From the NCBI GenBank assembly GCA_031316145.1, contig JALDQZ010000004.1, positions 233,958 to 265,957 of the forward strand: a stretch of 32,000 bases of DNA, read 5' to 3'. The position numbers and the translations under genes are program-made. The DNA comes from Candidatus Brocadiaceae bacterium. GTDB taxonomy: Bacteria; Planctomycetota; Brocadiia; Brocadiales; Brocadiaceae. The notes under the pieces were generated by a model. The model was given only the letters and a program-made list of their open reading frames with translations, searched no databases and had not been told where the DNA came from. How positions within the stretch are numbered: the stretch's first letter is position 1; each line of letters starts with the position of its first letter. Positions 3,336 to 23,733 of the stretch are shown piece after piece.

Positions 3336-3647
3336 TTATTTCATGAGGGAATGAATCCGCTTTGTATCAAGGAGGGCCTTTTCCATTGCTACCAGCGGGG
3401 TGATCTCTATGTCGGTAAAAAACGGAAAGAGTGGTAGTTTGGAGACAATCTCTTCCATCTCCTCATGGGATTCCGCGTCGATGATGGCGGCCGCCCCCCG
3501 CCTTCCAGCCAGTTTTCCCCCTGCCAGAATCTTCCCTCGCCTCTGGAACCGGGAGAAATACTCCCATTCCTTAATCACATATCCCAGAAAATCCTTTACC
3601 GGCATCTGAGGCATCTGTTTTACCTCAACCTTTAAAAGATATAACAT
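3336..3647 (-). CDS. Muconolactone delta-isomerase-like small alpha+beta (ferredoxin-fold) protein
   Basis: 103 aa. It starts MLYLLKVEVK...MP...EWEY...RRGKILAGGKLAGRRGAAAIIDAESHEEMEEIVSKLPLFPFFTDIEITPL. This parallels the MLFxVxMxV...G...DVxSxxELHxLLxSLPLFPYMxIxVTPL pattern of muconolactone isomerases. Confidence 0.5.
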   Translation of the reverse strand: MLYLLKVEVKQMPQMPVKDFLGYVIKEWEYFSRFQRRGKILAGGKLAGRRGAAAIIDAESHEEMEEIVSKLPLFPFFTDIEITPLVAMEKALLDTKRIHSLMK

Positions 3648-3796
3648 AGATTTCTACCCTTCCTAACCTTGCCAAGCTAAGGACCAAAAAAGAATACATT
3701 TCTTCTCTGTACTGGTTCGATCAGGTTCTCAAATGAAAAACCCCTAATTCGAAAGAATCAGAAAAGACACAATCTGTGCCAAGAAAATCATAAGTC

Positions 3797-3829
3797 AACC
3801 CTGTCAGGGTTTTAAACCCTGACAGGGTT
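3797..3829. repeat. Tandem pair of the palindromic motif AACCCTG(T/A)CAGGGTT; able to form a perfect 15-bp stem with a 3-nt loop; possible bidirectional terminator downstream of fabG
   Basis: 3797-3811 AACCCTGTCAGGGTT and 3815-3829 AACCCTGACAGGGTT are exact reverse complements of each other, and each is also self-complementary. The pair lies between the fabG stop (3926) and the start of the next minus-strand gene (3647). There is no adjacent U-run, so it is not a canonical intrinsic terminator. Confidence 0.5.
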
Positions 3830-3925
3830 AATTATATGTCAAAGTGCTTTTTGCAGAAGGGTTATTTACTTGTGCCGGAGAGTCGGCACCATACCATACA
3901 GCAACAACCACGGGTCCCCTGTCCT

Positions 3926-4669
3926 CTACATGGCCAGACCGCCGTCCACCTTGATAACATTTCCGGTAATATATTTTGCGTCATCAGATAACAGGAATCT
4001 TGCAACCCTGGCAACCTCCTCGGGAGCGCCAAATCTTCTCACCGGGACCATTTCGACCATCTTGTCCTTATAATCCTGAGGCAAAACGGCCGTCATATCC
4101 GTTTCGATAAAACCACAGGCAATCGCGTTTACGGTAACTTTGGCCTTTCCTACTTCCTTCGCAAGCGCCTTGGTGAAACCGATCATACCCGCCTTTGAAG
4201 AAGAATAATTTACCTGCCCTGCCATACCCATAATACCACTCACGGAGGAAATGTTTACAATACTGCCTGACTTTTGTTTGATCATTTGCATAATGACCGC
4301 TTTGGAAAAATTGTAGACACTTTTCAGATTCGTATTCATCACATCGTCCCAATCTCCTTCGCTCATCGTGGCAAGCAATTTATCACGGGTAATCCCCGCA
4401 TTGTTTACCAGAAAGTCAACCCTGCCAAAGGTGTTTTTTACTTCTTTTACCATATTTTTGGCATCTTCGAAATTAGCAACATCTACTTGAAACGGAATGC
4501 CCTTTACCCCTAAAGACTCAATTTCTTTTACCAGTGCATCTGCCATATCACCGCTCTTGTTGTAATTGAAGGCAATGTTACAGCCGCTTTTCGCAAGCTC
4601 TAGCACAATTGCCTTGCCTATGCCCCGCGTACCGCCGGTAACAATGGCAACCTTATCCTTTAATTCCAT
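3926..4669 (-). CDS. fabG: 3-oxoacyl-[ACP] reductase (SDR family)
   Basis: 247 aa. It has the TGGTRGIGKAI cofactor motif, NNAG, the catalytic S...YSSSKAG (Y-x3-K) and the end-to-end FabG pattern. A strong AGGAGGA RBS lies upstream of the ATG at 4669. Confidence 0.9.
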   Translation of the reverse strand: MELKDKVAIVTGGTRGIGKAIVLELAKSGCNIAFNYNKSGDMADALVKEIESLGVKGIPFQVDVANFEDAKNMVKEVKNTFGRVDFLVNNAGITRDKLLATMSEGDWDDVMNTNLKSVYNFSKAVIMQMIKQKSGSIVNISSVSGIMGMAGQVNYSSSKAGMIGFTKALAKEVGKAKVTVNAIACGFIETDMTAVLPQDYKDKMVEMVPVRRFGAPEEVARVARFLLSDDAKYITGNVIKVDGGLAM

Positions 4670-4793
4670 TCGATATTCCTCCTGTTTCTGTGTTTCCCCT
4701 TTCGCACAAGTATTGTTTTGCTTGAACGCATAGTAAAGAAATGGCTTTTGAAATGCAAGGCAAAAACCGGTACGTATTTGGCGAAAAAACGTT

Positions 4794-5600
4794 TTATTCG
4801 CCTTCCTTCACCAGCTTTAACCGCATCATCTCAGCAAAGAGTCCAACCTCATATTCAATACCTTTGCGAATGTCATTTTCCATGGCAAAATTGATACACT
4901 TTTTCATCTCTTTGAGCACCCTCGCATCCCGTTCCAGAAGCACCTTTGCCATATCGACGGCATGATGTAACACTTCTTTATGAGGTGATACTTGGTTAAC
5001 GAGTCCCCACTCCAGGGCTGTTTCAGCTCGAATCATCTTGCCAAGAAATAACATTTCTTTCGCACGCGCGGCGCCGACAATACGAGGTAGACGTTGTGTC
5101 GCCCCCAAACCCGGAATAATGCCAAGTTCCGGTTTTGCCTCAGGCAGACTGAAAAAAGATATTTCCGATGCTATGCGTAAGTCACACAACATCGCAAGCT
5201 CCAATCCTGCGCCAATAGTCACTCCGTTAATAGCAGCAATCACCGGTTTTTTACAATTTTCTATTTCTATAAATATCTCCTGAGCACGATGAAAACGTTC
5301 ATAGTTTTTCTCAGCCACAAGACCGGAAATCCATTGACCGAAGAGCTCGTCACGGTCAGCGCCGTCACTGAAAACCCCCCTGAGCTTGCTAGCAATAATA
5401 ATGACACCGATTTTGTCATCGCCTTCATACTGATCCATCTTGTCATAGATAGCATCCAGAAGCCATGAACCAATGGAGTTCCTGGGACTCTTCTTCATAT
5501 ATATAACACCAATGGCCTTACCAGTATCAGCCATGATTTCTTCGTATTCAATGTGGTCATAACCAGAGTTATCACCACGGTTCATGCGTATATCTTTCAT
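4794..5600 (-). CDS. Enoyl-CoA hydratase/isomerase (crotonase) family protein
   Basis: Crotonase fold motifs are present: FSDGAD oxyanion segment, NGVTIGAGLELAMLCD, LPEAKPELGIIPGLGATQRL. Both canonical catalytic Glu positions appear retained. Start chosen at ATG 5600 (MKDIRMN...), which overlaps the upstream gene's TGA as ATGA. The track ORF extends to 5663 only by read-through into the upstream gene. Confidence 0.85.
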   Translation of the reverse strand: MKDIRMNRGDNSGYDHIEYEEIMADTGKAIGVIYMKKSPRNSIGSWLLDAIYDKMDQYEGDDKIGVIIIASKLRGVFSDGADRDELFGQWISGLVAEKNYERFHRAQEIFIEIENCKKPVIAAINGVTIGAGLELAMLCDLRIASEISFFSLPEAKPELGIIPGLGATQRLPRIVGAARAKEMLFLGKMIRAETALEWGLVNQVSPHKEVLHHAVDMAKVLLERDARVLKEMKKCINFAMENDIRKGIEYEVGLFAEMMRLKLVKEGE

Positions 5601-7639
5601 ATTTTCAATGCGGTTTGAAACCCCTCGTGAACTGCTTCCAGCGCCGTGCGCACCTTGACACAATCACCGATACAATACATCTCCTCAAATTTGCCCTCTA
5701 TCTGCCTTCGCAAATCTTCGTTCGGGCAATACCCCACGGCAATGATGATTGTATCCGCCTTAACCGTATGGTCCAGGCCGCCCTTTTCATAGACAACCTG
5801 GCTCATGGTTTTTCCATTTTCTTTATGGTTACTGATTACTTCTTTCACTTTTACCTCAGTAATTTCTTTTATTCCCGCGGATTTTAACTCGTCGAGAATA
5901 ATCCATCTTGTAGAAATGCCAAATCCACCACCAAGCTTCTTTTTCATTTCAAGAACGGTAATGTTTCTGTTTCCCTTTGTTGTAAGCTCCACGACATCCT
6001 GTGCATTGATAACGTCGTGTTTTAGAAGAAAACAGGCCACATCCGGAGTCATTGCCCCCTGTCTGGCAATATGTAAGGCAACCTCGCTCCCTATCGTACC
6101 CCCCCCAATTATGACCACGTCTTTACCAAGGTGTACTTTCCCTTCCAGTACTGAACAGGCAAGACATACGCTCTTTTCGTTCATTCCTGGCAGATCGAGC
6201 ATTATGGGATTACCGCCGGTAGCAACAACTACCGCATCGGGACGTTCTTTTTCCAGCGTATGCAAATCCACCTCTTTTCCCAATATGATATTCACCTTTA
6301 GCTTCGTTATCTGCCGCTCCAGATAGGAAATCATATGTTGTATTTCTTCGCGTCCCGGAGGAATAAAGGCAAAACGCAATTGTCCTCCCAGTTGATTATT
6401 CCTATCGTATAGCGTTACATTGTGTCCCCGTAACGTTAAAACACGTGCCGCTTCCATACCTGCTGGTCCTCCTCCTACGACCACAACCTTTTTTTGTTTG
6501 TCCGTTTTGGCTATTTTGTATTCCCCTTCATGTCCTGCCCTTGCGTTATAGGTACAGGATATCGACTTAAAACTCAATAGAGAGTCAAAACATCCCTGAT
6601 TGCAGGCAATACAAGACCTGATATCATCCAATTGTCCACCTTCATATTTCTTCGGTAACTCCGGGTCCGCAATAAGGGGTCTGCCAATGGACACCATATC
6701 CGCCTGTTCATTGTCTAAAATTTCTTCTGCCAACGTAAGGTCGTTAATGCGCACAGAAGCAAGCACCGGAACGTTTACCTGCGATCGGATTCTATCTGAT
6801 AAAAATACATATGCCATACGGGGAATGATCATCGACATGATGGGCGTCCTGCTTTCATGCCAGCCGGGAGAAACATTAAATGCGTCGGCGCCTGCCTGTT
6901 CCAATATTCTGGCAATTTCAAGACTCTCATCCAGTTCAAGCCCATCCTTCACGAAATCATTTCCTGAAAGCCTGAAGATAACCGGATAATCATCACCCGC
7001 CGCGTCCTTGATCGCTATAATTATTTCCCTGGCAAATCGAACCCTGTTTTCAAGGGTTCCCCCATATTCATCACTTCGTTTATTCGTTGCCGGCGAAAGG
7101 AACTGATTAATAAGGTAACCCATCCCTCCATGTAATTCCACCGCGTCAAACCCCGCCTTCTTTATCCTGACTGTGGCATTGACATATCCGTCAATAACCT
7201 TTTTTATCTCCGGAACCGTTAAGATATGGGGCTCCTGCTTTATGTTCTTGTGAGCCAGTGATGACGGTGCAATGGGCTGCATCTTTGTAAAAAAAGAGGA
7301 CGCGCTTCTTCCGCCATGAAGCAATTGCGCTGCAATACGTGTGTCATATTCGTGAACAGCGTCAGCAAGCCTTTTTAATTCCGGAATGAATTCATCCTTA
7401 TCCAATCCGATGATACTCTTCCATACCTTGCCACCCATTTGCGGATAGCACCCTCCAATAACAATGAGACCTACCCCCCCCTTTGCCCTTTCCACATAAA
7501 AATTAATAATACGATCGTTTATTGCCCCATCAGAAGTAAATCCCAAATCCATGGCGGACATGGAGATCCTGTTCTTTACGATCATTTTGCCAATCGTTAT
7601 GTGAGTAAATAATTTGCTCATAACTTTATTCTGGATCAC
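5597..7639 (-). CDS. 2,4-dienoyl-CoA reductase-like / enoate reductase-like flavoprotein (OYE TIM barrel + 4Fe-4S + FAD/NAD(P) domains)
   Basis: 680 aa. The N-terminal Old Yellow Enzyme-like barrel shows HGGMGYLINQFLSP and NKRSDEYGG. A Cys cluster CIACNQGC...C is present. Two Rossmann GxGxxG motifs follow (VVVVGGGPAGMEAA, VVIIGGGTIGSEVA). This is the FadH architecture. The start is GTG 7639, preceded by a TAAGGA SD; an alternative ATG lies at 7621. Confidence 0.85.
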   Translation of the reverse strand: MIQNKVMSKLFTHITIGKMIVKNRISMSAMDLGFTSDGAINDRIINFYVERAKGGVGLIVIGGCYPQMGGKVWKSIIGLDKDEFIPELKRLADAVHEYDTRIAAQLLHGGRSASSFFTKMQPIAPSSLAHKNIKQEPHILTVPEIKKVIDGYVNATVRIKKAGFDAVELHGGMGYLINQFLSPATNKRSDEYGGTLENRVRFAREIIIAIKDAAGDDYPVIFRLSGNDFVKDGLELDESLEIARILEQAGADAFNVSPGWHESRTPIMSMIIPRMAYVFLSDRIRSQVNVPVLASVRINDLTLAEEILDNEQADMVSIGRPLIADPELPKKYEGGQLDDIRSCIACNQGCFDSLLSFKSISCTYNARAGHEGEYKIAKTDKQKKVVVVGGGPAGMEAARVLTLRGHNVTLYDRNNQLGGQLRFAFIPPGREEIQHMISYLERQITKLKVNIILGKEVDLHTLEKERPDAVVVATGGNPIMLDLPGMNEKSVCLACSVLEGKVHLGKDVVIIGGGTIGSEVALHIARQGAMTPDVACFLLKHDVINAQDVVELTTKGNRNITVLEMKKKLGGGFGISTRWIILDELKSAGIKEITEVKVKEVISNHKENGKTMSQVVYEKGGLDHTVKADTIIIAVGYCPNEDLRRQIEGKFEEMYCIGDCVKVRTALEAVHEGFQTALKI

Positions 7640-7689
7640 TGATCCTTACCTACCATTCCCGGATTTACATTGGTATTTTGTTCTAATTC

Positions 7690-7890
7690 TCAGTTTTCAA
7701 ATGCGTTACGATTATAAGTTGCACATCTAAATTTGTCAAGCCTATCCCCCTCTTGAATGCGCATCCTCCGCCACTCTTGCAAAAAATCTACAAAAAAATC
7801 CATGTCGTTGCTTCTCGCCATTTTGTATAGATACTTGTGCGCAGAAGGCCGTAGTATACATTTACACCAACCACAATCACACAGTATCAC
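7690..7890 (-). CDS. Hypothetical 66-codon ORF (doubtful)
   Basis: Its GTG start overlaps the stop of the upstream Mut7-C gene (GTGA). No recognisable motif. It fills the gap between the Mut7-C and FadH-like genes on the same strand. Confidence 0.2.
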   Translation of the reverse strand: MILCDCGWCKCILRPSAHKYLYKMARSNDMDFFVDFLQEWRRMRIQEGDRLDKFRCATYNRNAFEN

Positions 7891-8690
7891 ATAAATCGAG
7901 TGACTCTTTCTTTATAGTCTCTATGAAACCGACGAACCTTTTCCAGACGAATTTGTATCCGATCATGATGAGAACCCTTCCAATAAATCCTGTTACATCC
8001 TTCACATAAAAAGAATTCATTGAAATAGGCCTTTGTCTTTGGTTCCAAACGATGGATAATTAAAGATTTATCAATTTTCCTTATTTTACCGTTGCAAATC
8101 ATGCACCGATAAAACGGTCTTATTTGGGAATAGAGATCATAGCGATCAAGCACTTCCTGGAGTTGCTCCTCAGAATTCATTGAACGGATACAATATCCAT
8201 GGACAATAACCTTTACGTATAACAGTCGCCGATCTCGTGTAACGATTATGCGTTTTTCCTCCAAGGACCGGCGAATAATTTCAGGGTCGTCATAATCATT
8301 TTCATAGACGACATCAAATCCAAGCATCCTGAGCATTTTGGCTAGCTTACCAAGATGAACATCGAGGATAAATGCATGCTTTTTCAGTGGTTCATCCCTA
8401 AGCTTCACTCTGGGAAAAATATCAGTAGAAACCTTCTCCGGATATACCGCTACCTGGTCACCGTGCTGCAATCGATACTCAAAAGACACAGAATGCCCAT
8501 TGACGACAATCAGGTCAACTTCAGTATGGGGTACTCCGATTGCTTCTATCGGATCTTTTATAGAAGGATTACCACGAAATTGATAGGAATAGTTCTTTTC
8601 TCTTTTCTCCGAAGGGAAAAAGTCGTTCAGTTTTTCATAAAAATGAAATTGTGCCACATTTTCATACGAACTCCATATTTTTTTCTTCAT
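7887..8690 (-). CDS. Mut7-C RNase domain (PIN-like, DUF82) protein with N-terminal ubiquitin-like beta-grasp domain and C-terminal zinc ribbon
   Basis: HTEVDLIVVNGHSVSFEYRLQHGDQVAVYP is ThiS/Ub-Mut7C-like. DVHLGKLAKMLRMLGFDV...IVTRDRRLL is the Mut7-C nuclease core. CMICNGKI...CEGCNRIYWKGSHHDRI is the zinc ribbon. ATG 8690 (MKKKIW) is preferred over the TTG at 8735. Confidence 0.75.
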   Translation of the reverse strand: MKKKIWSSYENVAQFHFYEKLNDFFPSEKREKNYSYQFRGNPSIKDPIEAIGVPHTEVDLIVVNGHSVSFEYRLQHGDQVAVYPEKVSTDIFPRVKLRDEPLKKHAFILDVHLGKLAKMLRMLGFDVVYENDYDDPEIIRRSLEEKRIIVTRDRRLLYVKVIVHGYCIRSMNSEEQLQEVLDRYDLYSQIRPFYRCMICNGKIRKIDKSLIIHRLEPKTKAYFNEFFLCEGCNRIYWKGSHHDRIQIRLEKVRRFHRDYKERVTRFM

Positions 8691-9127
8691 GATTATTAGG
8701 ATTATTCCGTACCAAAATAGCGTACTACAGGTCAATTCTCCGAAATACCGTATTTCCTACATTGAAACCCTTTAAAAAAACTCCTTTATGGCACTCTATC
8801 AGGATAAAGATACCGTGGACCAAATAGAATGGAGCTTAAAAAACCTCATGTTATTATTAAAATTATATGGTATAATGTTATTTCATATTTCAGCATTATC
8901 CAGTAAAATTTGTACGTAAGCATTCAGTTTCTTTATAGTTTTCACAACGTACCGTAGATGTGAATATTGGAAGGGAGGTGAGGATTCATAATTATAGCAA
9001 TGGTATGCTTAAGATGAGGGGATTTATTTTTTTCTAATTTTCAAACGCGAGTGTATGTGAGTACTTTTAGAAGAGAGGTTTAAAGTTTTAAAGGCAGGTA
9101 TTGTTATTTTTCTAAGGAGAATAAGAT

Positions 9128-9547
9128 ATGAAAAAGTATGTATTAGGTATTTGTTTTGCTCTGAGTGTTGCAATGGTTTCCTGGACCACGGTTTCCGCAG
9201 AACCTACAGATGGTACGTTTACCGTTGTAGGTGATAATACTTCCTTTATGGGGGCAACGGAAGGGAAACAATTACCGTTGCTTTGTGACGGTTTTGGCTA
9301 TGTATGGGATCTTGAAGTTGTAAGCGCCGGTCAATTGCAGGGTACGGTAGATACCGGTACTTGCGGAATTTATCGCGTAACTGGTACATTTGACGCCGTG
9401 AATGTCAGGTTAAGAGCTCAAGGCGGTGATGGTGTACGTTGCGTAAGTTTCACCTATACGGGAACACACTCAGGGACAAATGGTTCGGGTACCTGGACAA
9501 ATGATGCAGGTGGCTCGGGTACCTGGTCAGCGTCAAAGTGTAATTAA
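9128..9547 (+). CDS. Secreted hypothetical protein, Gly/Thr-rich, 4 Cys
   Basis: AAGGAGA RBS 7 nt upstream. Signal peptide MKKYVLGICFALSVAMVSWTTVSA|EP. The mature part is rich in G/T/V, with four Cys and a duplicated GSGTW motif near the C-terminus. No family recognised. Confidence 0.6.
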   Translation: MKKYVLGICFALSVAMVSWTTVSAEPTDGTFTVVGDNTSFMGATEGKQLPLLCDGFGYVWDLEVVSAGQLQGTVDTGTCGIYRVTGTFDAVNVRLRAQGGDGVRCVSFTYTGTHSGTNGSGTWTNDAGGSGTWSASKCN

Positions 9548-9679
9548 ACCATGAGCGTTTGATCCGGGTATCTTGCCGAACCAAACAGAGCAACGATACT
9601 GTGAAGGTGATGATGATCTCATAGAAGCACGTATGAACCTTTCAAGTGAACTCTGTTAAAGGTGTATATACTGTTTCAA

Positions 9680-9717
9680 GAAGGGGTGGCAAACGGTTTT
9701 GCTACCCCTTCTTTGTT
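9680..9717 (+). terminator. Rho-independent terminator
   Basis: GAAGGGGTGGCAAA-cggt-TTTGCTACCCCTTC forms a 14-bp stem with one G-U pair, followed by TTTGTT. It lies 133 nt after the stop of the 9128..9547 gene. Confidence 0.6.
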
Positions 9718-9813
9718 AAACAACATTGGTGTTGTAAGATTCGTTCCTTTACAGGAATTTTCTTCTCCCTTCTTTTTAAACGATTAAATAAGTACTACTA
9801 CTAAAGAGTAATC

Positions 9814-10095
9814 ATGCCAAGAAAAGAAATACATACGTTTTCGGAGAATGACATATCGAGGATATTTATTGCCAGAAATGTAAGAGAGGCAAAGTTTATT
9901 GAAAGGATTTTCGCTCAAAACAAAATAGACTATTCAATAGAGCTGGAATCTTACGTCTCAACAAGATTTTTTGGCAGCTCAAATTATATCGGAGCCACAT
10001 TTTACGTACGGACAGAAAAAAGTGCTTTTTGCAAGGAATTGCTTACCTCTCATGGTTTACATTCAGGGATCATAGATGAAGAAAATAGTGTATAA
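9814..10095 (+). CDS. Hypothetical protein (93 aa)
   Basis: The only long ORF in this interval. No motif that I can assign confidently, and the RBS is weak. Confidence 0.4.
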   Translation: MPRKEIHTFSENDISRIFIARNVREAKFIERIFAQNKIDYSIELESYVSTRFFGSSNYIGATFYVRTEKSAFCKELLTSHGLHSGIIDEENSV

Positions 10096-10186
10096 ACCAC
10101 CCGTTTGAAATACTGGAATGCCTGCAACTATTTTTTTCCGGTGTGCTTACCACAGTGAGTAGACCGTAACGATAACACGTTTATTT

Positions 10187-11425
10187 TTATTTATTGAACG
10201 TGCTAACAATCAGGCAGGAATTATTCCCATCATAATCCATGTTGTGGACCGCAGCATGATTAATTTCTTTTTTGAGGGGCTTTTCCAAGACGAGATTCAG
10301 ATTATTCTCTTGATCTTGTTCCTTGTGATTTATGATGTGAGGAATGGTACCGGTATTTATCGACATCACCGCAGAAATGATCTGGGCAGCGCCCGCAGTA
10401 CCATAACTCTCGCCCACATTCGATTTGATTGCAGAAATTGGGATATGAACAGCGTTTTCACCGTATAGGGATTGAATCGCCATGAATTCAATGTAGTCCT
10501 GTGTTTTACATCCATTAGCACCGGCGTTGATACAATCAATGTTTTCTTTTGTAAGCCCTGCATCTTCCAAGGCATAATGCATGGCTTTTTCCACGCGTCG
10601 TACCTTTTCTTCCATGGAATATTTTTTACCACCCGCAAAAGTATTGCCAAATCCTTTTACCTCTGCATAGATACGAGCTCCTCTGTCCAGGGCATGTTGC
10701 AGTTCTTCAAGGACAATAACTTGACTTCCTTCGGCCATTACAAAACCGTTTCTTTCCCTATCAAATGGCGCGCAAACCTCACTTGTTCCATCCAAACCGG
10801 ACAGTAAACCCCTCAGATAAAAAATCAGGTACAGGTCAATAGAGATTTGCTCCACGCCACCGGCCACCATAACCTTCGCCATACCACGCTTTATCATCCT
10901 ACAGGCATCCCCTATGGCATCTGTACTCGATGTAAAACCGGCAGAAAGCGTGCGCACAGGCCCCTTGATCTTAAAGGTGACTGATACATAATTGATGGAT
11001 GAGTTTAATGCTACATCGTAGCTGCACATCGGTGAAAGTTCCGACGGATTATTCCTGATAATTTCAAAAAAGTAATCTGTTGTCTCCGAAAAATTCCCCA
11101 ATGACGACCCAATCACCATTCCCATCTGATCAGCTAAGGATCCATCCTCCGGCGAAAGGTTTGCATCGTCCAGAGCCATTTTAGCCGCTGACCCCAGGAA
11201 CCGTGTTCCCTTATTCAGATATTTTAGGCCTTTTTTACCAAGGTGGGTTTCAACGGAAAGACCTCGTACCTCGCCACCCAATTTGCATGTATAGGGAGAA
11301 AGATCCAGGGAAGTCATTGGCGCAATGCCCGATTTTCCTTCTACAAGGTTGTCCCAGAATTCCTCTTTTGTTGACCCAAGAGGAGACACAACCCCCATAC
11401 CAGTAATAACAACTCTTTTTTTCAT
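10187..11425 (-). CDS. Beta-ketoacyl synthase-like protein lacking the Cys-His-His triad (chain-length-factor-like KS partner)
   Basis: 412 aa with a full KS fold (MKKRVVITGMGVVSPLG..., C-terminal thiolase half). When aligned by eye to the neighbouring KS, the active-site residues are replaced. ACSSG becomes AGFTSS (Cys to Phe164). INAHGTGT becomes INAGANGC (His to Gly). GHLMGAAS becomes GESYGTAG (His to Glu). Confidence 0.85.
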   Translation of the reverse strand: MKKRVVITGMGVVSPLGSTKEEFWDNLVEGKSGIAPMTSLDLSPYTCKLGGEVRGLSVETHLGKKGLKYLNKGTRFLGSAAKMALDDANLSPEDGSLADQMGMVIGSSLGNFSETTDYFFEIIRNNPSELSPMCSYDVALNSSINYVSVTFKIKGPVRTLSAGFTSSTDAIGDACRMIKRGMAKVMVAGGVEQISIDLYLIFYLRGLLSGLDGTSEVCAPFDRERNGFVMAEGSQVIVLEELQHALDRGARIYAEVKGFGNTFAGGKKYSMEEKVRRVEKAMHYALEDAGLTKENIDCINAGANGCKTQDYIEFMAIQSLYGENAVHIPISAIKSNVGESYGTAGAAQIISAVMSINTGTIPHIINHKEQDQENNLNLVLEKPLKKEINHAAVHNMDYDGNNSCLIVSTFNK

Positions 11426-11561
11426 AAAGCTTTTTTCATAATCAACGTTCGTATTCTCATTTTTGTCTTTATTCCACCATACCCCTTGTGCCCAATCTAG
11501 AATCTGGAATAAGCTTTTTTACGGGGAATTTTCTCAACGAAATTCTTCTGGCAAGCATCGA

Positions 11562-12773
11562 TCATTCCAGCTTAGTAAATATCGTCGTAGCATTATTGCC
11601 ACCAAAGGCAAACGAATTATTAACAATACTCCCTACCTTTGCTTCACGCGCCTTATTGGGTACAATGTCAAGATCACATTCCGAGTCAGGTGTTTCATAG
11701 TTTATTGTCGGAGGTATAATTCCATGTCTGAGCACCAAACAGCATATAATTGATTCCACGGCGCTCGCCGCACCCATAAGATGCCCAATCATTGATTTTG
11801 TCGAACTGCAGGGAATTTTACAGGCATATTCCCCGAAAACATGTTTTATAGCAAGGGTCTCTGTCTTATCATTATGCGGTGTACCTGTACCGTGCGCATT
11901 AATATAATCGATATCCGCGCAGGAAAGTCCAGCCATTTTCATGGCGTTGCTCATGCATTTTATTGCGCCTTCTCCTTTTGGATGCGGCGCTGTCATATGG
12001 AACCCATCGCAACTTAACCCATAACCAGCCATCTCCGCAATAATCTCCGCCCCGCGATTTTTCGCGAACTCATACCGTTCCATAATCAGTATTCCAGCCC
12101 CTTCTCCTATCATAAGTCCTTTGCGATTTTTATCAAAAGGCTGGCAACGGTCGGGGGCCAACGCCTTAAGGTTATGGAAGTGGGTAAATTCTGTTTGCGG
12201 AATCATGTCTCCTCCGCCAACCATGATCACATCCATCTTGTTTTCTGCAAGAAGGTCATAGGCCCAGGCAATGGCATGATTCCCTGAAGAACAGGCGTTG
12301 AGAGATACCATCGTCGGACCTTCAAAATCAAAATGCTGAGCTAATACGTTTGTAATGGAATTCGGAGGATAGACAGCCGCAACGATCGTATCAAACCCAT
12401 TATCCTTTTTTAAAGTATACCGCCTCAAACGTCTCTCAAAAGGTGTTAACTCTGCCGCAAGCGTACCAATGGTGATACCGAAGCGTTCTCTGTTAAACCC
12501 TTTTGCCTCTAATAAACCACTTTCCTGTAATGCCTCCCGAGCAGCATAATAAACATATTTATGGATGGTATTTTCTTTTATCTGATTTTCAAGCCCCACC
12601 TCCAAATCAAAATCCTTTACCTCACAAGAACGATGAACCTTATATTGAGAAGTATCAAAGGACTTCATTTCATTGGCGCCATCACGTCCACCGATAAATG
12701 ATTCCCAGCTTTTTCTTACACCTATTCCAACAGGTGTGACCAAACCCATACCGGTAATAACGACTTTCCGCAT
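11562..12773 (-). CDS. Beta-ketoacyl-[ACP] synthase (FabF/FabB family) with intact catalytic triad
   Basis: 403 aa. MRKVVITGMGLVTPVG, active-site LNACSSGNHA (Cys161), INAHGTGTPHND, KSMIGHLMGAASAVE and the NSFAFGGNNATTIF C-terminus. Confidence 0.9.
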   Translation of the reverse strand: MRKVVITGMGLVTPVGIGVRKSWESFIGGRDGANEMKSFDTSQYKVHRSCEVKDFDLEVGLENQIKENTIHKYVYYAAREALQESGLLEAKGFNRERFGITIGTLAAELTPFERRLRRYTLKKDNGFDTIVAAVYPPNSITNVLAQHFDFEGPTMVSLNACSSGNHAIAWAYDLLAENKMDVIMVGGGDMIPQTEFTHFHNLKALAPDRCQPFDKNRKGLMIGEGAGILIMERYEFAKNRGAEIIAEMAGYGLSCDGFHMTAPHPKGEGAIKCMSNAMKMAGLSCADIDYINAHGTGTPHNDKTETLAIKHVFGEYACKIPCSSTKSMIGHLMGAASAVESIICCLVLRHGIIPPTINYETPDSECDLDIVPNKAREAKVGSIVNNSFAFGGNNATTIFTKLE

Positions 12774-12832
12774 GATTTTATATCTTCAAAAGTATCATGT
12801 TAATTCACCAACGCGCCAGGAATGCATAAAAT

Positions 12833-12879
12833 AAGAGAGGCCAACTATTCGCCCGAAACGAATATGTTGACCTTCTCTT
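12833..12879 (-). terminator. Imperfect hairpin between the radical SAM gene and the KS gene (possible attenuator/terminator)
   Basis: The minus strand reads AAGAGAAGGTCAACATATTCG-tttcggg-CGAATAGTTGGCCTCTCTT followed by ATTTTAT. The stem has mismatches and bulges. Confidence 0.3.
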
Positions 12880-12948
12880 TTCTTGCGAGCAGCCCCGCGC
12901 ACTCACACCATGTAACTACTTTTCCTTATTTTTGAGAAAAGATAGATA

Positions 12949-14430
12949 TTACGTTGAGACCTCTATCGGCGTCAAGTCAGGTTTTTCCCCATGCTTTTTT
13001 GCATACTCGTAGCGCTGTAAAGCATCGTCATAATATCCGGAGGTCTGTAATTCTTTTAAATTCTGAATCAAGTGTTGATAGACACTCTGCCAATCCAGAT
13101 TTACCCTGAAAGCAAACATTGCAGCATTCATATTATTATTCAATTCATCCTTGGCGCTGTGAAATCTTTTTCGAAGTATCTCAGTGGAAAAGATCTTATC
13201 ATATAAATACTGAAAACCGTTGATAAGGTCCTGAAGTGACAAACTTTTCAATATATAGGTAAGATGATGCGACGTATAATATTTCCAGTCTTCGGGAAAA
13301 TTTGTCCTAAAAAGCCTGCCATCTCTCTTTAATCGGTTGTATAGAGGCGTATTGATAAAAGGACATAAGATGCCACACGTCATGATGTCAATGTGGGAAT
13401 TTAAAATAAAATCGGCAACCTTTTTAAACGTGTCTGGAGTATCGGCATCGTTTCCAAATACCATAGTACCCCATACCGCAAGTCCATGCTTCCGAATATT
13501 TGCAATAGCTTCAAAATAATTTTCAGTGGAAATTCGCAGGTTAACATTTTTATTCATCGTCTTAAGCGCTTCTTCTTCAATAGATTCGATACCGATCAAA
13601 ACTCCCACGCACCCGCTCTTTGCCATATACTCAAGAGTTTCATCGTCTTTATATATGTTAAGAGAGGTAAAACCAAACCAGTTCTGATAAATACCTCGTT
13701 CTACCATGCCTTTAAAAAGGTCTCTCACACGTTCGTTGGATTTTTTACTATGCCCGTAAAAATTCTCATCCGTCAAAATCAAACCACGATATTGCCCGTT
13801 AATGGATTCGAATTCGTCTAAGACGTCCTCTATCGGTCTTTCACGATATTTTCTCCCCTGGAACTGAGGTACTGAACAAAATTCACAACTGAACGGACAC
13901 CCGGCTGTTGTTATAATTCCGGAGTATCGATATTTATATTTATCCTTTAAAAACTTCCTATCAGACCGCAAGCCATGGTAAATATCCATAGAGGTAAGAC
14001 CGCCGTCATATCTCTTTTGGAGGCAACCATTTTCAAAATCATCAAGGATTTTTTCCCAAAGGGTCACCGCTTCCCTGATTACAACGCAATCAACATATTT
14101 TTCTACCTCTTCGGGAAAGCTCGTGGCATGAATACCCCCCATAATTACCGGAATCCCTCGTTTTTTACACGCAGCAGCAATCTTATATGCACGGTGGGCC
14201 TGATAACTAACGGAAGTAATACCAACCAGGTCAGCGCCTTCAAAAGTAATATCCCCGGTATTTTCATCTATGGCATATTCCTGTGTTTCATCTATAATAT
14301 CAACTTTCCAGTGTGCCGGAGTTAACGCTTTCAGATAACCCAGATTAACCGGCATTTGATTTAACACAGAAACGTTTTCCTCTCCAACATTGCCAATCGG
14401 ATGAGGATTAATAAGAACCAGTTTTTTCAT
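12949..14430 (-). CDS. B12-binding-domain radical SAM enzyme (class B rSAM)
   Basis: 493 aa. The N-terminal cobalamin-binding-like Rossmann segment reads DLVGITSVSYQAHRAYKIAAACKKRGIPVIMGGIHATSFPEE. It is followed by the radical SAM cluster motif CPFSCEFC (CxxxCxxC) and a GVLIGIES-type barrel strand. The ATG at 14430 overlaps the acpS stop (ATGA). Confidence 0.85.
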   Translation of the reverse strand: MKKLVLINPHPIGNVGEENVSVLNQMPVNLGYLKALTPAHWKVDIIDETQEYAIDENTGDITFEGADLVGITSVSYQAHRAYKIAAACKKRGIPVIMGGIHATSFPEEVEKYVDCVVIREAVTLWEKILDDFENGCLQKRYDGGLTSMDIYHGLRSDRKFLKDKYKYRYSGIITTAGCPFSCEFCSVPQFQGRKYRERPIEDVLDEFESINGQYRGLILTDENFYGHSKKSNERVRDLFKGMVERGIYQNWFGFTSLNIYKDDETLEYMAKSGCVGVLIGIESIEEEALKTMNKNVNLRISTENYFEAIANIRKHGLAVWGTMVFGNDADTPDTFKKVADFILNSHIDIMTCGILCPFINTPLYNRLKRDGRLFRTNFPEDWKYYTSHHLTYILKSLSLQDLINGFQYLYDKIFSTEILRKRFHSAKDELNNNMNAAMFAFRVNLDWQSVYQHLIQNLKELQTSGYYDDALQRYEYAKKHGEKPDLTPIEVST

Positions 14431-14864
14431 GTATAGACCTCTGCATTCTCAGTGGTTAATTTGTTTTCGCAAAATTTCTGCACCGCCTTGGGAATTAATA
14501 ATACCTGAGCAATAGCATATTCTTTACAATGAGATAAAGAGACCTTCGCATTGCCAATATTTTTTTTCTCCACTAATTCTTTCACCATCCCATAGAAATT
14601 CAAATATGGTTTCCCTTTTTCATTATTTAAAAGTTCTATATCCGTCCATTTCATGGCACCAACCCATCCGGTGCCTAATGCCTTAAACATGGCTTCCTTT
14701 GTGGCAAAACGCGCAGCATAATGCTGAAACCTGTTCTTCTTTGGGTTACAGTATTGTATTTCTTTTTCCGTATAGATTCTTTTTAAAAATGCCTCATTTG
14801 CAGAAAACAATCTTTCAATACGTTTTATTTCTATTATATCTATACCAATATCCATACGATGCAA
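14427..14864 (-). CDS. acpS: Holo-[ACP] synthase (4'-phosphopantetheinyl transferase, AcpS type)
   Basis: MDIGIDIIEIKRIERL..., FTEKEIQYC, ARFATKEAMFKALG and SLSHCKEYAIAQVLL match the AcpS pattern. The likely true start is ATG 14855 (MDIGID). The C-terminal ~15 aa extension overlaps the rSAM start. Confidence 0.8.
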   Translation of the reverse strand: MHRMDIGIDIIEIKRIERLFSANEAFLKRIYTEKEIQYCNPKKNRFQHYAARFATKEAMFKALGTGWVGAMKWTDIELLNNEKGKPYLNFYGMVKELVEKKNIGNAKVSLSHCKEYAIAQVLLIPKAVQKFCENKLTTENAEVYT

Positions 14865-15075
14865 TCGTTGCTAAATGATTGTAACTACTTATTACATAAG
14901 TATCTGTTACCGTAAACTGGCATTGTACAAGTTTACAAAATCAATGTCAATGACAAATTCATCCATGAGCACATATATACTGCTCTTTTAGCGGATATCA
15001 TGAGAAGTATCCGAAAAAGTTCTCTATTCGTGAATGTTTAACTGGCAAGCATCACTCTATCTGTTCCATTCTACC

Positions 15076-16062
15076 TTAAGAACCAAGAAATCGTATAAAA
15101 TGCATTAAGAGTTTCTCATTGAAGCTCCCTTCCATCTCATTTTTCATCATTTTCAATGCAGTAAAAGGTTTTCTCGCATCGGAATAAGATCTTCTTGTCG
15201 TCAAGGCATCATACACATCCACAATACACGCAAGCTGCCCGTATTTATGGATATCCTCCCCTTGTAACCCGCGTGGATAACCTTTGCCACTGTATTTCTC
15301 ATGATGTTGTGCAACTGAATACAATGAACGAGTATCCAGACCACCAACATTTTCTAGAATTTCAACGCCAAATGCTACATGCTCTTTCATTTTTTCAAAC
15401 TCCTCTTCCGTGAGACTTCCTTCTTTATTAACTATTTCTGATACAATCCGGGTTTTCCCTACGTCATGCAGCATCATTCCAGTCCCTACGGAGTAGAGTT
15501 CATCAATAGAAAATCCCAGATATCTTGAGAATGCCAAACCTAAAACAGACACATTCACTGAATGTGTATAGGTATAATAATCATACGAAAGTACGTTTAT
15601 CAAAGAACGAGATGCATCCTTATTGTTTATAATAAACTCTACGGTATTTGAGATCAATTCCCTGGAATGCGCTATATTTTCACCAGAACGCGGATTTTTC
15701 AAAACATCCACCATAATATTTTTTGCTAGGTCATAGACAATACCTGCCTTTTCCTCGGTTTTCAACGTACCATCGTGAATTATCTTCTTTAAAGACGATT
15801 CTAAATACTGGAAAAATTTTTGGCAATCTTCCTTGCGTATATACAACCTTTCAACGTGTTCCTTTAACAATCTATCGATTTTGCTTGTATTAATAAGGGT
15901 TTCACCACTTACATAGAGTACAAACTGTTCCTTGTTGTTTACACAAAGTTTAAGAAAAATATCACACCCTACACAGGTATTACAACGTATGGTTTTCAAC
16001 AGTATGGGAATATAATTATCCGTAATGCTTACACTTATCTGCGTGTCTCTTTTATTCTTCAT
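15076..16062 (-). CDS. HD-GYP domain protein (probable c-di-GMP phosphodiesterase) with uncharacterised N-terminal domain
   Basis: Contains the HDVGK and HHEKYSGKGYPRGL motifs. The ~140-aa N-terminal region has no motif I recognise. Confidence 0.8.
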   Translation of the reverse strand: MKNKRDTQISVSITDNYIPILLKTIRCNTCVGCDIFLKLCVNNKEQFVLYVSGETLINTSKIDRLLKEHVERLYIRKEDCQKFFQYLESSLKKIIHDGTLKTEEKAGIVYDLAKNIMVDVLKNPRSGENIAHSRELISNTVEFIINNKDASRSLINVLSYDYYTYTHSVNVSVLGLAFSRYLGFSIDELYSVGTGMMLHDVGKTRIVSEIVNKEGSLTEEEFEKMKEHVAFGVEILENVGGLDTRSLYSVAQHHEKYSGKGYPRGLQGEDIHKYGQLACIVDVYDALTTRRSYSDARKPFTALKMMKNEMEGSFNEKLLMHFIRFLGS

Positions 16063-16465: not shown

Positions 16466-18880
16466 ATGATATTTGTTATCCTTTTTATAATTATTTCAAC
16501 AATAACAGGATTTTTACTTACGTATTTTCTTGCATCTTCGTACTCATTGTTTGAAAGGATTGCCTATGGTTTAGTTATTGGTCTGGGTCTTCATACCTGG
16601 GTTGTTTACCTTTTTTCATTTCTTTGGGGACTCACGTTCATAAGCATATTCATTACCATTGCTGTATCACTTGTGTTTTGTTCACTATTTACAACCGTAC
16701 AATGGAGTAGCTTTAAACGTGATGTCCTTTTTGAACTGAGACGCACAAAAAATGATTTCCTTTTAAACAAAAAATCCTGCTTTGTCCACATTGCAGTCTT
16801 TTCCTTCTTTACTACGATCTTTTACCGTCTGTTTTACAGAATAATACTCTGGAAAAATGATGGAATGTACATCGGACTGCCAAATAATTACGGTGATTTA
16901 CCCCTTCATTTGGGTTATATCACATCCTTTGTGTGGGGAAATAACATTCCCGCGCAAGATCCTTCGTTCGCAGGCGAAAAACTGAAGTATCCCATCCTCT
17001 CCGATTTTTTGTCCGCCGTATTTCTTACCATGGGCGCTGACTTCAAGCAAATACTCTTCATCCCGGGACTCTTGTTAAGCATTGGTTTTTGCTGTGTTCT
17101 CTATTACTTTACGTATCGTCTGACAAAAAGAAGGCTTGCGGCAATTGTTTCATTGTTTTTATTCTTTTTTTCCGGCGGGTTTGGCTTTTACTATATCATT
17201 CAGGACTTTACAAATTACTCACATGGTTTTTGGTCGTTCCTTACCCATTTACCACGAGACTATACAAAAATCACATCCTTTAATTACCACTGGATTACAC
17301 CATTAACATGCCTTACTATACCCCAGAGATCATTTCTTTTTGGATTTCCTTTTACGATTTTAATCTTTTCTTTGTTATACACAGGTATTGAAGAAAAAAA
17401 CCGGAGAGAATTTCTCTTTGCCGGTATCCTTGCCGGTGCGCTTCCTTTCCTTCATACCCATAGCTTCCTTGCCATGTTAATGGTTACCATACCCCTGGGC
17501 TTCATATTTTGGAACTGGAGGAATTGGCTTGCATTCTTTCTCCCCGCTTTTGTCCTCTCGTTTCCTCAGGTATATTGTCTTTCAAGCAACGTTCGTGGTG
17601 GAAGTTTTTTTGCATTACACACGGGATGGATGGCGGGAAAAGAAAATTTTTTTTGGTTTTGGTTAAAAAATACCGGTCTTTTCTGGTTCGCGGTCTTCGG
17701 TGGATTTGCAATTGTTTTTACCGCAAACAAAAAATTAACCAACCGGGTCCTGATGCGTACGGGACTATTCTCACTACCATTTTTATTCCTTTTTCTCTTA
17801 CCGAATTTTCTCCTTTTTGCTCCATGGGCATGGGATAATATAAAGATTTTCATTTATTGGTTTCTCGGTACCAGCCCGCTTGCGTCTCTCGCTCTAATTC
17901 GCCTATATGAGTACAAACGCCTTACAATTATCTCGAAAACATCCTTTTGTATTCTCATGCTTTCTTTAACCGCTGCGGGAGGAGTTGATATTTTCAAATA
18001 TGCCATTGTCCCTGTTAACGGATGGAAAGAATTTAGCCGTGAAGAAATAATGCTTGCAAAACGTATTTCAGAAGAAACCCCTGTAAACGCGATTTTTCTC
18101 AATGCTCCCATATTCAATCACCCTGTGTTTCTCTCCGGAAGGATATCATTGATGGGCTACATGGGCCACATATGGAGCCACGGCTACAAGGATGGTTCCG
18201 GTCGCGAGCAAGATATCAAAAAAATGCTCCGTGGTTCACCCGAAGCGCTATCGCTTATTAACACATATAAACCTCACTATGCGATCCTAGGTCCGCATGA
18301 AAAACGCGTCGGGGCAAAAAGAATATTTTTCGACAAAAATTTTACGTGTGTTATTACTACAAAAAAATATAGAATTTACGATCTTACTAAAAAGAACCAA
18401 TTTAGCACGCAAAAAAACGAAGGGTTTTCCGATAAGACTGAGCACCATTCTTTAAACCAAAATAATGGACTTCTCGTTTGTTATTATGATACGATATCTT
18501 GGGAAGGTGATCCCATATTTGAAGAAATTAACCCGTCTATTACTATTAATTATTCTGATGAAGATGAAAAACCGATCAATAGCCCTTTTAGTGTAATCTG
18601 GAAGGGATATATAGATGTTGATGTTTCCGGCAAGTATACATTCAGGCTGACCTCCGACGATGGCTCCTGGCTTTACATTGATAATACCATGGTGATAAAT
18701 AACGGCGGACATCATAGCAGGAAAACTCTCGAAGGAACCATAACCCTGAACAAGGGCAAACACACAATTATGGTTAAATATTTTGATGCCGGGGGAGGCG
18801 CCATTCTCAGTCTCTTATGGAAACCACCAAATGCCTCAGAATCAGAGATTCCTGCGCATGTTTTGTCTCCATCTCAATAA
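16466..18880 (+). CDS. Polytopic membrane protein (GT-C-like glycosyltransferase suspected) with C-terminal PA14 domain
   Basis: 804 aa. The first ~510 aa are a run of hydrophobic helices (judged by eye), with a loop motif NNYGDLPLHLGY. A soluble region follows, and the last ~137 aa are PA14-like. The GT-C assignment rests on architecture and on paralogy of the C-terminal module with the next gene. Confidence 0.65.
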   Translation: MIFVILFIIISTITGFLLTYFLASSYSLFERIAYGLVIGLGLHTWVVYLFSFLWGLTFISIFITIAVSLVFCSLFTTVQWSSFKRDVLFELRRTKNDFLLNKKSCFVHIAVFSFFTTIFYRLFYRIILWKNDGMYIGLPNNYGDLPLHLGYITSFVWGNNIPAQDPSFAGEKLKYPILSDFLSAVFLTMGADFKQILFIPGLLLSIGFCCVLYYFTYRLTKRRLAAIVSLFLFFFSGGFGFYYIIQDFTNYSHGFWSFLTHLPRDYTKITSFNYHWITPLTCLTIPQRSFLFGFPFTILIFSLLYTGIEEKNRREFLFAGILAGALPFLHTHSFLAMLMVTIPLGFIFWNWRNWLAFFLPAFVLSFPQVYCLSSNVRGGSFFALHTGWMAGKENFFWFWLKNTGLFWFAVFGGFAIVFTANKKLTNRVLMRTGLFSLPFLFLFLLPNFLLFAPWAWDNIKIFIYWFLGTSPLASLALIRLYEYKRLTIISKTSFCILMLSLTAAGGVDIFKYAIVPVNGWKEFSREEIMLAKRISEETPVNAIFLNAPIFNHPVFLSGRISLMGYMGHIWSHGYKDGSGREQDIKKMLRGSPEALSLINTYKPHYAILGPHEKRVGAKRIFFDKNFTCVITTKKYRIYDLTKKNQFSTQKNEGFSDKTEHHSLNQNNGLLVCYYDTISWEGDPIFEEINPSITINYSDEDEKPINSPFSVIWKGYIDVDVSGKYTFRLTSDDGSWLYIDNTMVINNGGHHSRKTLEGTITLNKGKHTIMVKYFDAGGGAILSLLWKPPNASESEIPAHVLSPSQ
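18467..18877 (+). other. PA14 domain-coding segment of the 16466..18880 gene
   Basis: GLLVCYYDTISWEGDPIF...PFSVIWKGYIDVDVSGKYTFRLTSDDGSWLYIDNTMVINNGGHHS...GKHTIMVKYFDAGGGAILSLLWKPP. This is the classic PA14 pattern: W-G-Y, tandem-Asp DDG segment, Y-I-D-N, and G-G-x-x-x-L-x-W. Confidence 0.8.
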
Positions 18881-18897
18881 ATTTATAAAGAAATTCT

Positions 18898-23080: not shown

Positions 23081-23086
23081 ACACCA

Positions 23087-23728: not shown

Positions 23729-23733
23729 GTTTT

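Follow-up and report, generated by a model that had tools for sequence, protein, structure and literature searches.

A candidate anammox lipid gene block in a Candidatus Brocadiaceae genome and its kinship to Cluster I

Described candidate clusters and the Brocadiaceae block

The biosynthesis of ladderanes, which are fatty acids with fused cyclobutane rings, has been an open problem since the structure was reported in 2002, and ring formation has been tied to no enzyme. The anammox bacteria themselves are genetically intractable. Among the described systems, the one closest to the locus considered here is kuste2802-2805 of Kuenenia, one of four candidate clusters proposed for ladderane or fatty-acid synthesis (Rattray 2009, PMC2649909). 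We analysed a stretch of 32,000 nucleotides from the genome of a Candidatus Brocadiaceae bacterium (contig JALDQZ010000004.1, positions 233,958 to 265,957; the whole stretch is called the window below), in which an earlier note had described an accessory fatty-acid/polyketide synthase-like locus of the ladderane-candidate kind in anammox bacteria. Our analysis supported that description, the first four genes of the locus being orthologues of kuste2802-2805. The candidate status of these four genes is already in print, and to that extent the window locus is a rediscovery; what is new here is the extended ancestral block to which they belong, its relation as twin and partner to a further candidate set, Cluster I, and the existence of rare superclusters outside the anammox bacteria.

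In Kuenenia, kuste2802 is the sole acpS (Rattray 2009, PMC2649909, Table 1), and the product of kuste2805 (accession CAJ73556) has the published signature Phe163/Asn298/Lys328/Glu333 (Table 2 of the same paper). Of 34 candidate genes, this last one is among only 4 that may have been gained when anammox arose (Liao 2022), and a hydrazine transcriptome paper merely lists kuste2802-2805 as a known cluster. Recent structural work has centred on Cluster I (kuste3603-3608), which has the order amxACP-amxFabZ-FabF2-FabFmut-PDH-rSAM (ACP, acyl carrier protein; PDH, phytoene-dehydrogenase-like; rSAM, radical S-adenosylmethionine enzyme) and has been described as encountered exclusively in ladderane producers (Dietl 2023). 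Its amxFabF2/amxFabFmut pair is a complex resembling a ketosynthase (KS) with a chain-length factor (CLF), with malonyl-ACP decarboxylase activity and an apparent C6-C8 substrate preference (bioRxiv 10.64898/2026.05.19.726425). In that preprint the heterodimer and the decarboxylase activity were shown for the Cluster I pair only, and the kuste2804/2805 pair is not mentioned.

When the open reading frames (ORFs) of the window were re-read and searched with Pfam and NCBIfam profiles, all genes named in the earlier note were recovered on the minus strand. In the direction of transcription these are acpS (14427..14864), encoding a holo-ACP synthase with an ACPS domain and orthologous to kuste2802; rSAM_A (12949..14430), with B12-binding-type, Radical_SAM and DUF4070 domains and orthologous to kuste2803 by identity to CAJ73554; KS_A (11562..12773), a triad-intact ketosynthase, orthologue of kuste2804 and paralogue of amxFabF2; and KSdead_A (10187..11425), a triad-less KS homologue, orthologue of kuste2805 and paralogue of amxFabFmut, each member of the pair having both KS domains. 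Beyond a lineage-specific insertion that divides the ancestral block (7640..10186) there follow a FadH-like FMN/[4Fe-4S]/FAD-NAD(P)H oxidoreductase (5597..7639; Oxidored_FMN and Pyr_redox_2), a crotonase-fold enoyl-thioester hydratase/dehydratase (ECH; 4794..5600; ECH_1), a FabG-type 3-oxoacyl-ACP reductase (3926..4669; TIGR01830) and, as the last gene of the ancestral block, a small muconolactone-isomerase-like (MIase-like) protein (3336..3647; PF02426). The one-strand, 11-kb gene set first described is therefore right as to strand and as to the genes it named, but it is not a single uninterrupted block: the 2.5-kb insertion makes two units of it, and both this insertion and the MIase-like gene at 3336-3647 had been overlooked. 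Two couplings by an ATGA overlap were read directly from the sequence, that of acpS with rSAM_A (...tatacATGAaaaaa at 14430-14427) and that of the FadH-like gene with the crotonase gene (...aaatATGAaagat at 5600-5597). As had been claimed, no fabD, fabH, fabZ, fabI, acpP or plsX was detected by Pfam on window ORFs of at least 80 aa, so that nowhere in the window do these genes stand beside fabF and fabG as in a housekeeping fab operon; a tblastn search of the window with amxACP, amxFabZ and PDH gave zero matches.

The first four genes are the same as those of kuste2802-2805, in the same order and on one strand. Since kuste2805 is CAJ73556 according to Rattray, CAJ73554 is kuste2803; rSAM_A, which is identical to MDR4508795.1 from a Candidatus Brocadiaceae metagenome-assembled genome (MAG), agrees with CAJ73554.1 of Kuenenia stuttgartiensis at 409 of 492 residues (83%). 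The dead KS of the window shares the Phe/Lys/Glu substitutions of its Kuenenia counterpart and has Gly in place of Asn298. Taken together, the rSAM identity, the gene order and the dead-KS signature make these four genes a new member of the published candidate cluster. The window proteins are close to those of Brocadia, Wujingus and Wunengus, and the host is labelled Candidatus Brocadiaceae bacterium; the 32-kb window contains no hydrazine synthase (hzs) gene. The Kuenenia cluster differs in lacking the FadH-like, crotonase, FabG and MIase-like genes that the window has 2.5 kb downstream: in K. stuttgartiensis CP049055 the locus (L161 in our numbering) reads acpS-rSAM-KS-KS, with nothing further. 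No paper in the literature searched ties these four downstream genes to the kuste2802-2805 cluster, and the block genes go unmentioned in a 2024 preprint that deals with ladderanes at high temperature.

Alignment showed that KS_A keeps its Cys/His/Lys/His residues and that KSdead_A, compared with B. subtilis FabF (4ls5), has Phe for Cys, Gly for one His and Glu for the other, with Lys kept, as the description of an intact ketosynthase beside a homologue with all three catalytic residues replaced had implied. The dead-KS signature F-N-K-E was present in 85 orthologues, the window protein reading F-G-K-E. The two KS proteins are 27.5% identical to each other. Against the TIGR03150 fabF equivalog model KS_A scored 419.5 bits, under the cutoff of 493.75, and KSdead_A 321.8 bits; KS_A clears the cutoff of the broader NF005589 subfamily (413.5 against 387 bits). 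Chains B and C of 9s5h/9s5i were the top solved-structure matches of KS_A and KSdead_A, respectively, with 402.6 bits for KS_A (9s5h_B; canonical FabFs reached at most 316) and 284.6 bits for KSdead_A (9s5h_C), and we take these entries to be, probably, the amxFabF2/FabFmut heterodimer. Also among the PDB matches of the pair were 1tqy and 6kxd (280.6 bits with KS_A), the latter presumably the ishigamide ketosynthase. On these sequence comparisons KSdead_A is probably a CLF-like partner of KS_A, with which it is predicted to form a heterodimer.

The 493-aa rSAM_A matched Radical_SAM (PF04055) with 74.2 bits and the B12-binding domain (PF02310) with 40.5 bits (cutoff 32.1), in addition to DUF4070, and has the cluster motif C178-x3-C182-x2-C185 (CxxxCxxC). 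Grouping of the enzyme with a family of known, unrelated function such as the BchE/HpnP type would, by the earlier note's own account, have spoken against the proposed reading. Its scores fall far under the curated cutoffs for PhpK (100.7 of 600, the best NCBIfam match), TIGR04072 rSAM_ladder_B12 (78.2 of 360), HpnJ (77.2 of 578), BchE (75.4 of 481) and HpnR (61.3 of 650), and an identity of BchE, HpnP, HpnR, HpnJ or PhpK type was dropped. The structures nearest to its AlphaFold model (pLDDT 78) were AprD4, MgmA, TokK, OxsB, CysS and TsrM, with TM scores of at most 0.65 and identities of at most 20%, and PDB sequence and fold searches returned only distant class-B and MiaB-type neighbours and no functional assignment. 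The chemistry of rSAM_A is not readable from homology.

The remaining enzymes are closer to known families. Translation of acpS probably begins at the ATG at 14855, and its product matched TIGR00516 with 98.5 bits (cutoff 59.8). The FadH-like protein, probably starting at the ATG at 7621 (674 aa), gave a full-length alignment with the 2,4-dienoyl-CoA reductase of E. coli (1PS9, 380 bits), conserves the four cluster Cys (CIACNQGC...C), the Tyr of GYLINQF and the His of GWHESR, and falls under every NCBIfam equivalog cutoff (mycofactocin OYE2, BaiCD, BilR). The crotonase (PF00378, 170.5 bits) has both catalytic Glu, in GLELAM and LPEA, as judged from alignments to crotonase-family structures. 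FabG matched TIGR01830 with 320.8 bits (cutoff 297.75), and the MIase-like protein matched PF02426 with 55.6 bits (cutoff 26.7) and showed weak similarity to solved isomerases.

Conservation across anammox lineages and relation to Cluster I

Window proteins were mapped by tblastn to 80 loci from GTDB species genomes, the best among 185,579 such genomes, and to 74 metagenome loci (locus numbers with the prefix L below). The order acpS-rSAM-KS-KSdead was found in Brocadia, Jettenia, Kuenenia, Loosdrechtia, Wunengus, Scalindua, Anammoxibacter, Subterrananammoxibius and the basal Hypogeohydataceae/JP1 group, all of which have been described as anammox bacteria. Every Brocadiia locus that reaches past the rSAM gene runs into KS and KSdead, and acpS precedes rSAM in nearly all of them, over three orders; in about 70 anammox loci acpS lies directly 5′ of rSAM, at 52-79% identity. 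rSAM_A is the most conserved protein of the block (75-77% identity to Scalindua and 67-72% to basal lineages), and the KS pair is 54-66% identical to that of Scalindua.

The downstream genes are variably linked to these four. A gapless KSdead-FadH-ECH-FabG-MIase order is found in Scalindua, in Jettenia ecosi (L021) and on unlabelled metagenome contigs (e.g. L124), and basal lineages have FadH-FabG-MIase with KSdead abutting FadH. In related Brocadiaceae MAGs the gap between KSdead and FadH varies from about 0.7 to 5 kb. In K. hertensis FadH-ECH lies more than 50 kb off on the same contig, and in B. pituitae a solitary FadH gene is about 1.4 Mb distant. With the downstream genes scattered in this way in the model organisms, it is clear why the cluster as published has kuste2805 for its last gene. 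FadH-like orthologues are 55-77% identical across anammox lineages; the MIase-like gene keeps its place in anammox loci, with protein identities of 63-90%, which drop to 46-60% in L070 and L134, both non-anammox; and FabG shows conserved synteny in Scalindua, Jettenia and the basal lineages as well as, outside anammox, in L070, L134 and L135. Judged from this synteny, the true ancestral block consists of the published four genes together with the FadH-like, crotonase, FabG and MIase-like genes, and is larger than published.

A second anammox rSAM, rSAM_B, 54-57% identical to rSAM_A, was found in Cluster I of Kuenenia, Brocadia and Subterrananammoxibius. Like the window, Cluster I combines an active KS and a triad-less one with a B12-type rSAM, and it is a paralogous module: with the Cluster I of K. 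hertensis, identities are 45% for KS_A and FabF2, 40% for KSdead_A and FabFmut and 54% for rSAM_A and rSAM_B. It differs in having its own ACP, FabZ and phytoene-dehydrogenase-like genes, in being without acpS, FabG, crotonase, FadH and MIase, and in the dead KS, where Val occupies the Cys position instead of the Phe of the window type. Neighbour-joining trees resolved four KS clades (KS_A, KS_B, KSdead_A and KSdead_B) and split the rSAMs into two, A and B, with the window rSAM in A. Each KS and rSAM clade holds anammox as well as non-anammox sequences, indicating that the duplication of the module is older than its spread among phyla. The rSAM A/B/C family is small, with about three representatives at 46% identity or more among 1.84 billion and the next relatives at 44% or less. 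A separate clade B′ of rSAM genes was noted in the basal JP1/Hypogeohydataceae group (L071, L073, L074 and L080, the last at 10001-11443); these lie beside menaquinone and unrelated genes and not lipid genes, the L071 locus (7248-11425) following directly after MqnA-like and MqnC-like genes. One further rSAM (P0064/L081), 61% identical, has GCV_T and acyl-CoA dehydrogenase neighbours and no KS, and is uninformative on the cluster.

Relatives outside the anammox bacteria are rare, with about 11 clusters at 90% identity among 5.8 billion proteins and 2 of the best 80 loci, and the contigs that bear superclusters have a high G+C content (0.50-0.70). L082 (2119-14797) reads ACP-FabZ-FabF2-FabFmut-PDH-rSAM_B-rSAM_C-rSAM_A-KS_A-KSdead_A-ECH up to the contig end and has an Acidobacteria-like neighbouring gene; L159 (644-13560) repeats this order and continues with genes for a zinc-dependent alcohol dehydrogenase (Zn-ADH), an aminotransferase and an AMP-ligase. 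In a Myxococcales MAG, on a 506-kb contig, L070 (3900-20005) reads ACP-FabZ-FabF2-CLF, three rSAM genes, KS_A-KSdead_A-MIase-ECH-FabG-FabH-like-AcpS-KS-CLF, and L135 (1-7974) reads FabFmut-PDH-rSAM-rSAM-KS-KSdead-FabG. L134 (9995-16107) has rSAM-KS_A-KSdead_A-ECH-FabG-MIase back to back with genes for phosphatidylserine decarboxylase and a CDP-alcohol phosphatidyltransferase, L160 (5422-13164) has orthologues of the window cluster with an aminotransferase and an AMP-ligase, and L069 (a Blastocatellia MAG) and L088 have KS_A-KSdead_A-rSAM_A-rSAM_B.

In L070, L082, L159 and L135 the two anammox clusters are thus contiguous, and two or three B12-type rSAM genes stand there in tandem. Cutting the fused order between the rSAM genes yields exactly the two anammox clusters, which is the strongest evidence for one common pathway, and the fused arrangements argue for genuine membership, over chance proximity, of ECH, FabG, MIase and AcpS. 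In L063 (9586-21222; MAG CSMAG_693 of a basal anammox lineage) the end of the window-type cluster faces PDH-rSAM_B of Cluster I in convergent orientation, so that there, too, the two are neighbours. The earlier note had counted conserved occurrence of the same gene set in many organisms with only ordinary fatty acids as evidence against its reading; we found the set nearly confined to anammox bacteria, with a few rare relatives elsewhere. On their gene content, these non-anammox loci qualify the statement of exclusivity made for Cluster I (Dietl 2023). "Ladderane" calls of the antiSMASH type have also been reported in other phyla, without orthology to these clusters.

A proposed pathway and its alternatives

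From orthology, synteny, domain content and active-site conservation we favour, with moderate confidence, the reading that the locus is part of an anammox-specific, ladderane-type fatty-acid pathway, in which the window block would be one of two paralogous modules of an ACP-dependent lipid pathway and Cluster I the other. AcpS would turn the carrier protein amxACP, encoded elsewhere, into its holo form, and KS_A with its triad-less partner would act as a KS/CLF-like heterodimer that adds malonyl units to the ACP-bound chain. The 3-keto group would then be reduced by FabG, and dehydration could be carried out by the crotonase, in which both catalytic Glu are kept. As the block contains no enoyl reductase (ER), conjugated unsaturation could accumulate, as in highly reducing type II polyketide synthases (PKS); the FadH-like enzyme may reduce 2,4-dienoyl thioesters and the MIase-like protein may reposition double bonds. 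The cobalamin-type rSAM would perform a radical step on an ACP-bound intermediate, either C-H activation leading to a C-C bond or methyl transfer. Together with Cluster I, which would contribute the carrier protein, FabZ, another KS/CLF pair, a desaturase-like PDH and another rSAM, the block fits models of radical reshaping of unsaturated ACP-bound intermediates during or after chain growth, and rSAM action on enoyl-thioester intermediates during chain growth is one of three ladderane models in a review (PMC13459092).

Several observations weigh against this reading. No experiment links any block gene to ladderanes, and when kuste2802-2805 was expressed in E. coli with other candidates no new fatty acids were formed, although most of the proteins were insoluble (Javidpour 2016, PMC4790861). 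The block encodes no ACP, and FadH, ECH, FabG and MIase are unlinked from the cluster in Brocadia and Kuenenia. As acpS is the sole phosphopantetheinyl transferase gene in Kuenenia and FabG clears a housekeeping cutoff, either could be a shared housekeeping gene. Homologous clusters occur in non-anammox bacteria (Myxococcales, and a smaller one in Blastocatellia) that have never been reported to make ladderanes; these lack the FadH-like gene, which we saw in anammox versions only, and in several of them aminotransferase and AMP-ligase genes give the look of a specialised-metabolite cluster. Cobalamin use by rSAM_A, finally, is only predicted from its domain; AprD4, the nearest structure, works without cobalamin despite a similar N-terminal domain, so that a B12-type domain alone is not proof.

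An alternative that we consider unlikely is that the locus serves another anammox lipid feature, most plausibly methyl-branched acids such as 10-methylhexadecanoate, with a class-B rSAM acting as C-methyltransferase on an unactivated carbon. Most characterised cobalamin-type rSAMs are methyltransferases, the top NCBIfam match of rSAM_A is the PhpK P-methyltransferase (100.7 bits), and the methylases MgmA, TokK, CysS and TsrM are among its nearest folds, yet its scores against methylase families are all far under the cutoffs. To our knowledge anammox bacteria have neither FabA nor O2-dependent desaturases, which makes the usual olefin-methylation route less obvious, and we counted this in favour of such a methylase. 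Simple methylation, however, needs no KS/CLF pair, ketoreductase (KR), dehydratase (DH), dienoyl reductase and isomerase in conserved synteny, and it sits poorly with a module that other bacteria have physically joined to Cluster I, with PDH and two more rSAM genes. A weaker argument is that close homologues come almost all from Brocadiia and none from other known makers of 10-methyl-C16 acids.

A further explanation, to which we would give only a slim chance, is a type II PKS-like cluster for a specialised metabolite, a polyene or other small molecule, unrelated to bulk membrane lipids. The combination of KS/CLF, KR and DH without ER does resemble highly reducing type II PKS, 6kxd was matched, the FabZ of the fused clusters matches ApeI/ApeP-like families, and the non-anammox relatives have aminotransferase, AMP-ligase and Zn-ADH genes. 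Presence in every sampled anammox lineage with conserved synteny and an unusually conserved rSAM is, however, not the pattern of an accessory biosynthetic gene cluster; moreover, the cluster is headed by the sole acpS of Kuenenia, and L134 lies back to back with phosphatidylserine decarboxylase and CDP-alcohol phosphatidyltransferase genes.

That housekeeping fatty-acid genes (acpS, fabF, fabG) and beta-oxidation auxiliaries (fadH, ech) merely happen to lie close together is highly improbable. In favour of it, acpS is a sole copy in Kuenenia, FabG clears TIGR01830, KS_A clears NF005589, and FadH and crotonase are classical auxiliary beta-oxidation enzymes with intact active sites, yet the dead KS and the rSAM are integral, co-conserved members, gene order is kept over three orders and partly in other phyla, KS_A falls under the fabF equivalog cutoff and resembles chain B of 9s5h (probably amxFabF2) more than it does any of the canonical FabFs, and, whereas the earlier note would have called the locus housekeeping had it been the only fab locus, the canonical fabF-acpP-fabD-fabH genes of the model Kuenenia sit elsewhere, at kustd1386-1389 (PMC2649909). 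A reading of the locus as a housekeeping fab operon was dropped on the last three of these grounds.

The ladderane-type reading can be carried one step further. We tentatively propose, as a possibility that we hold at less than even odds, an ancient supercluster of about 15 genes, still intact in rare non-anammox bacteria, of which the window block forms one half and Cluster I the other. If this is true, the FadH-like, crotonase, MIase-like and this FabG protein would be unlisted enzymes of the ladderane pathway, the published anammox exclusivity of the pathway genes would be wrong, and ladderane-like lipids, or precursor polycyclic or polyunsaturated lipids, may occur outside anammox bacteria; a compact and complete gene set would also be available for heterologous reconstitution. 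If related lipids are produced by the non-anammox clusters, ladderanes would have to be reconsidered as a biomarker exclusive to anammox bacteria. The extended block also offers a larger defined gene list for reconstitution, as the earlier attempts in E. coli did not list the FadH-like, crotonase and MIase-like genes, and the non-anammox superclusters, some of them probably in more tractable lineages, are an alternative source of soluble enzymes.

Insertion, flanking genes and comparison with known systems

The two units of the window block are each headed by a near-consensus sigma-70-like site, both on the minus strand and both found by consensus scan only: TTGACA-17-TACAAT (11/12) 5′ of acpS at 14922..14950, and a perfect TTGACA-17-TATAAT (12/12) 5′ of the FadH-like gene at 7711..7739. 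The insertion contains, on the minus strand (7887-8735), a gene for a Mut7-C RNase that begins with a ubiquitin-like Ub-Mut7C domain and, on the plus strand, two orphan ORFs, one of 139 aa that is Gly/Thr-rich with a hydrophobic, signal-peptide-like N-terminus (9128-9547) and one of 93 aa (9814-10095), neither of which had a Pfam or NCBIfam match; no Mut7-C match was found in the corresponding gap of the related Brocadiaceae MAGs. G+C content is 0.45 in the FadH-to-MIase half, 0.41 in the acpS-to-KSdead half, 0.39 in the insertion and 0.38 in the flanks of the window. A palindrome with a 17-bp stem lies between FabG and the MIase-like gene (3795..3831). It is formed by two copies of the palindromic 15-mer AACCCTGTCAGGGTT at 3797-3829, and a further copy lies at 18960-18974, downstream of a PA14 gene (six strand-matches in all, against 0.06 expected); the element could be REP-like or a bidirectional terminator. 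An Rfam scan of the whole window found no riboswitch, such as a cobalamin or SAM riboswitch, the only Rfam or ARAGORN match being a tRNA-Leu(GAG) at 30197-30286 (minus strand).

Directly 5′ of acpS is a gene for an HD/HD_5-domain protein (15076-16062, minus strand), and weak homologues (30-34%) lie 5′ of acpS in Brocadia L006 and L010. Further out are two large adjoining PA14-domain proteins (16466-21087, plus strand), the second with an N-terminal PMT_2 glycosyltransferase domain, followed on the opposite strand by a GT2 glycosyltransferase. A type II secretion/type IV pilus-like set occupies 21878-29958 (minus strand), with GspF, a T2SSM_b protein, a PilM/PilN fusion, GspK, two prepilin-type N-methyl proteins and a secretin, and the C-terminal fragment of a D-Ala-D-Ala ligase lies at 31377-31973.

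Among characterised systems, E. coli FadH (1PS9) shares with the FadH-like enzyme of the window its three-part architecture, the four Cys of the [4Fe-4S] cluster and the Tyr and His proton donors; FadH belongs to beta-oxidation, whereas the window enzyme has a biosynthetic, ACP-type context in which 2,4-dienoyl reduction is predicted. rSAM_A is like the class B rSAMs (TokK, CysS, TsrM, MgmA, OxsB and BchE) in its N-terminal Rossmann-type B12-binding domain and CxxxCxxC barrel, but differs from them in being at most 20% identical, with a TM score of at most 0.65, to every solved member, and in scoring 61-101 bits against subfamily models with cutoffs of 360-650. The jawsamycin system, an iterative PKS with the rSAM cyclopropanase Jaw5, has in common with the proposed pathway the idea of an rSAM that installs small rings during chain growth. 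Jaw5 is a HemN-like rSAM that has no B12 domain and works with a type I PKS, and no sequence relationship between it and rSAM_A was found. Highly reducing type II PKS (ishigamide Iga11/Iga12 and aryl-polyene systems) and the actinorhodin KS/CLF (1TQY) share with the window an active KS beside an inactive homologue, stand-alone KR and DH, an ACP-bound chain and the lack of an ER in the module. Classical CLFs have Gln at the Cys position, which the window partner does not, and the window block is set apart from these systems by a dehydratase that is a crotonase and not of the FabZ/ApeI type and by having a radical SAM enzyme and a FadH-like reductase as integral members.

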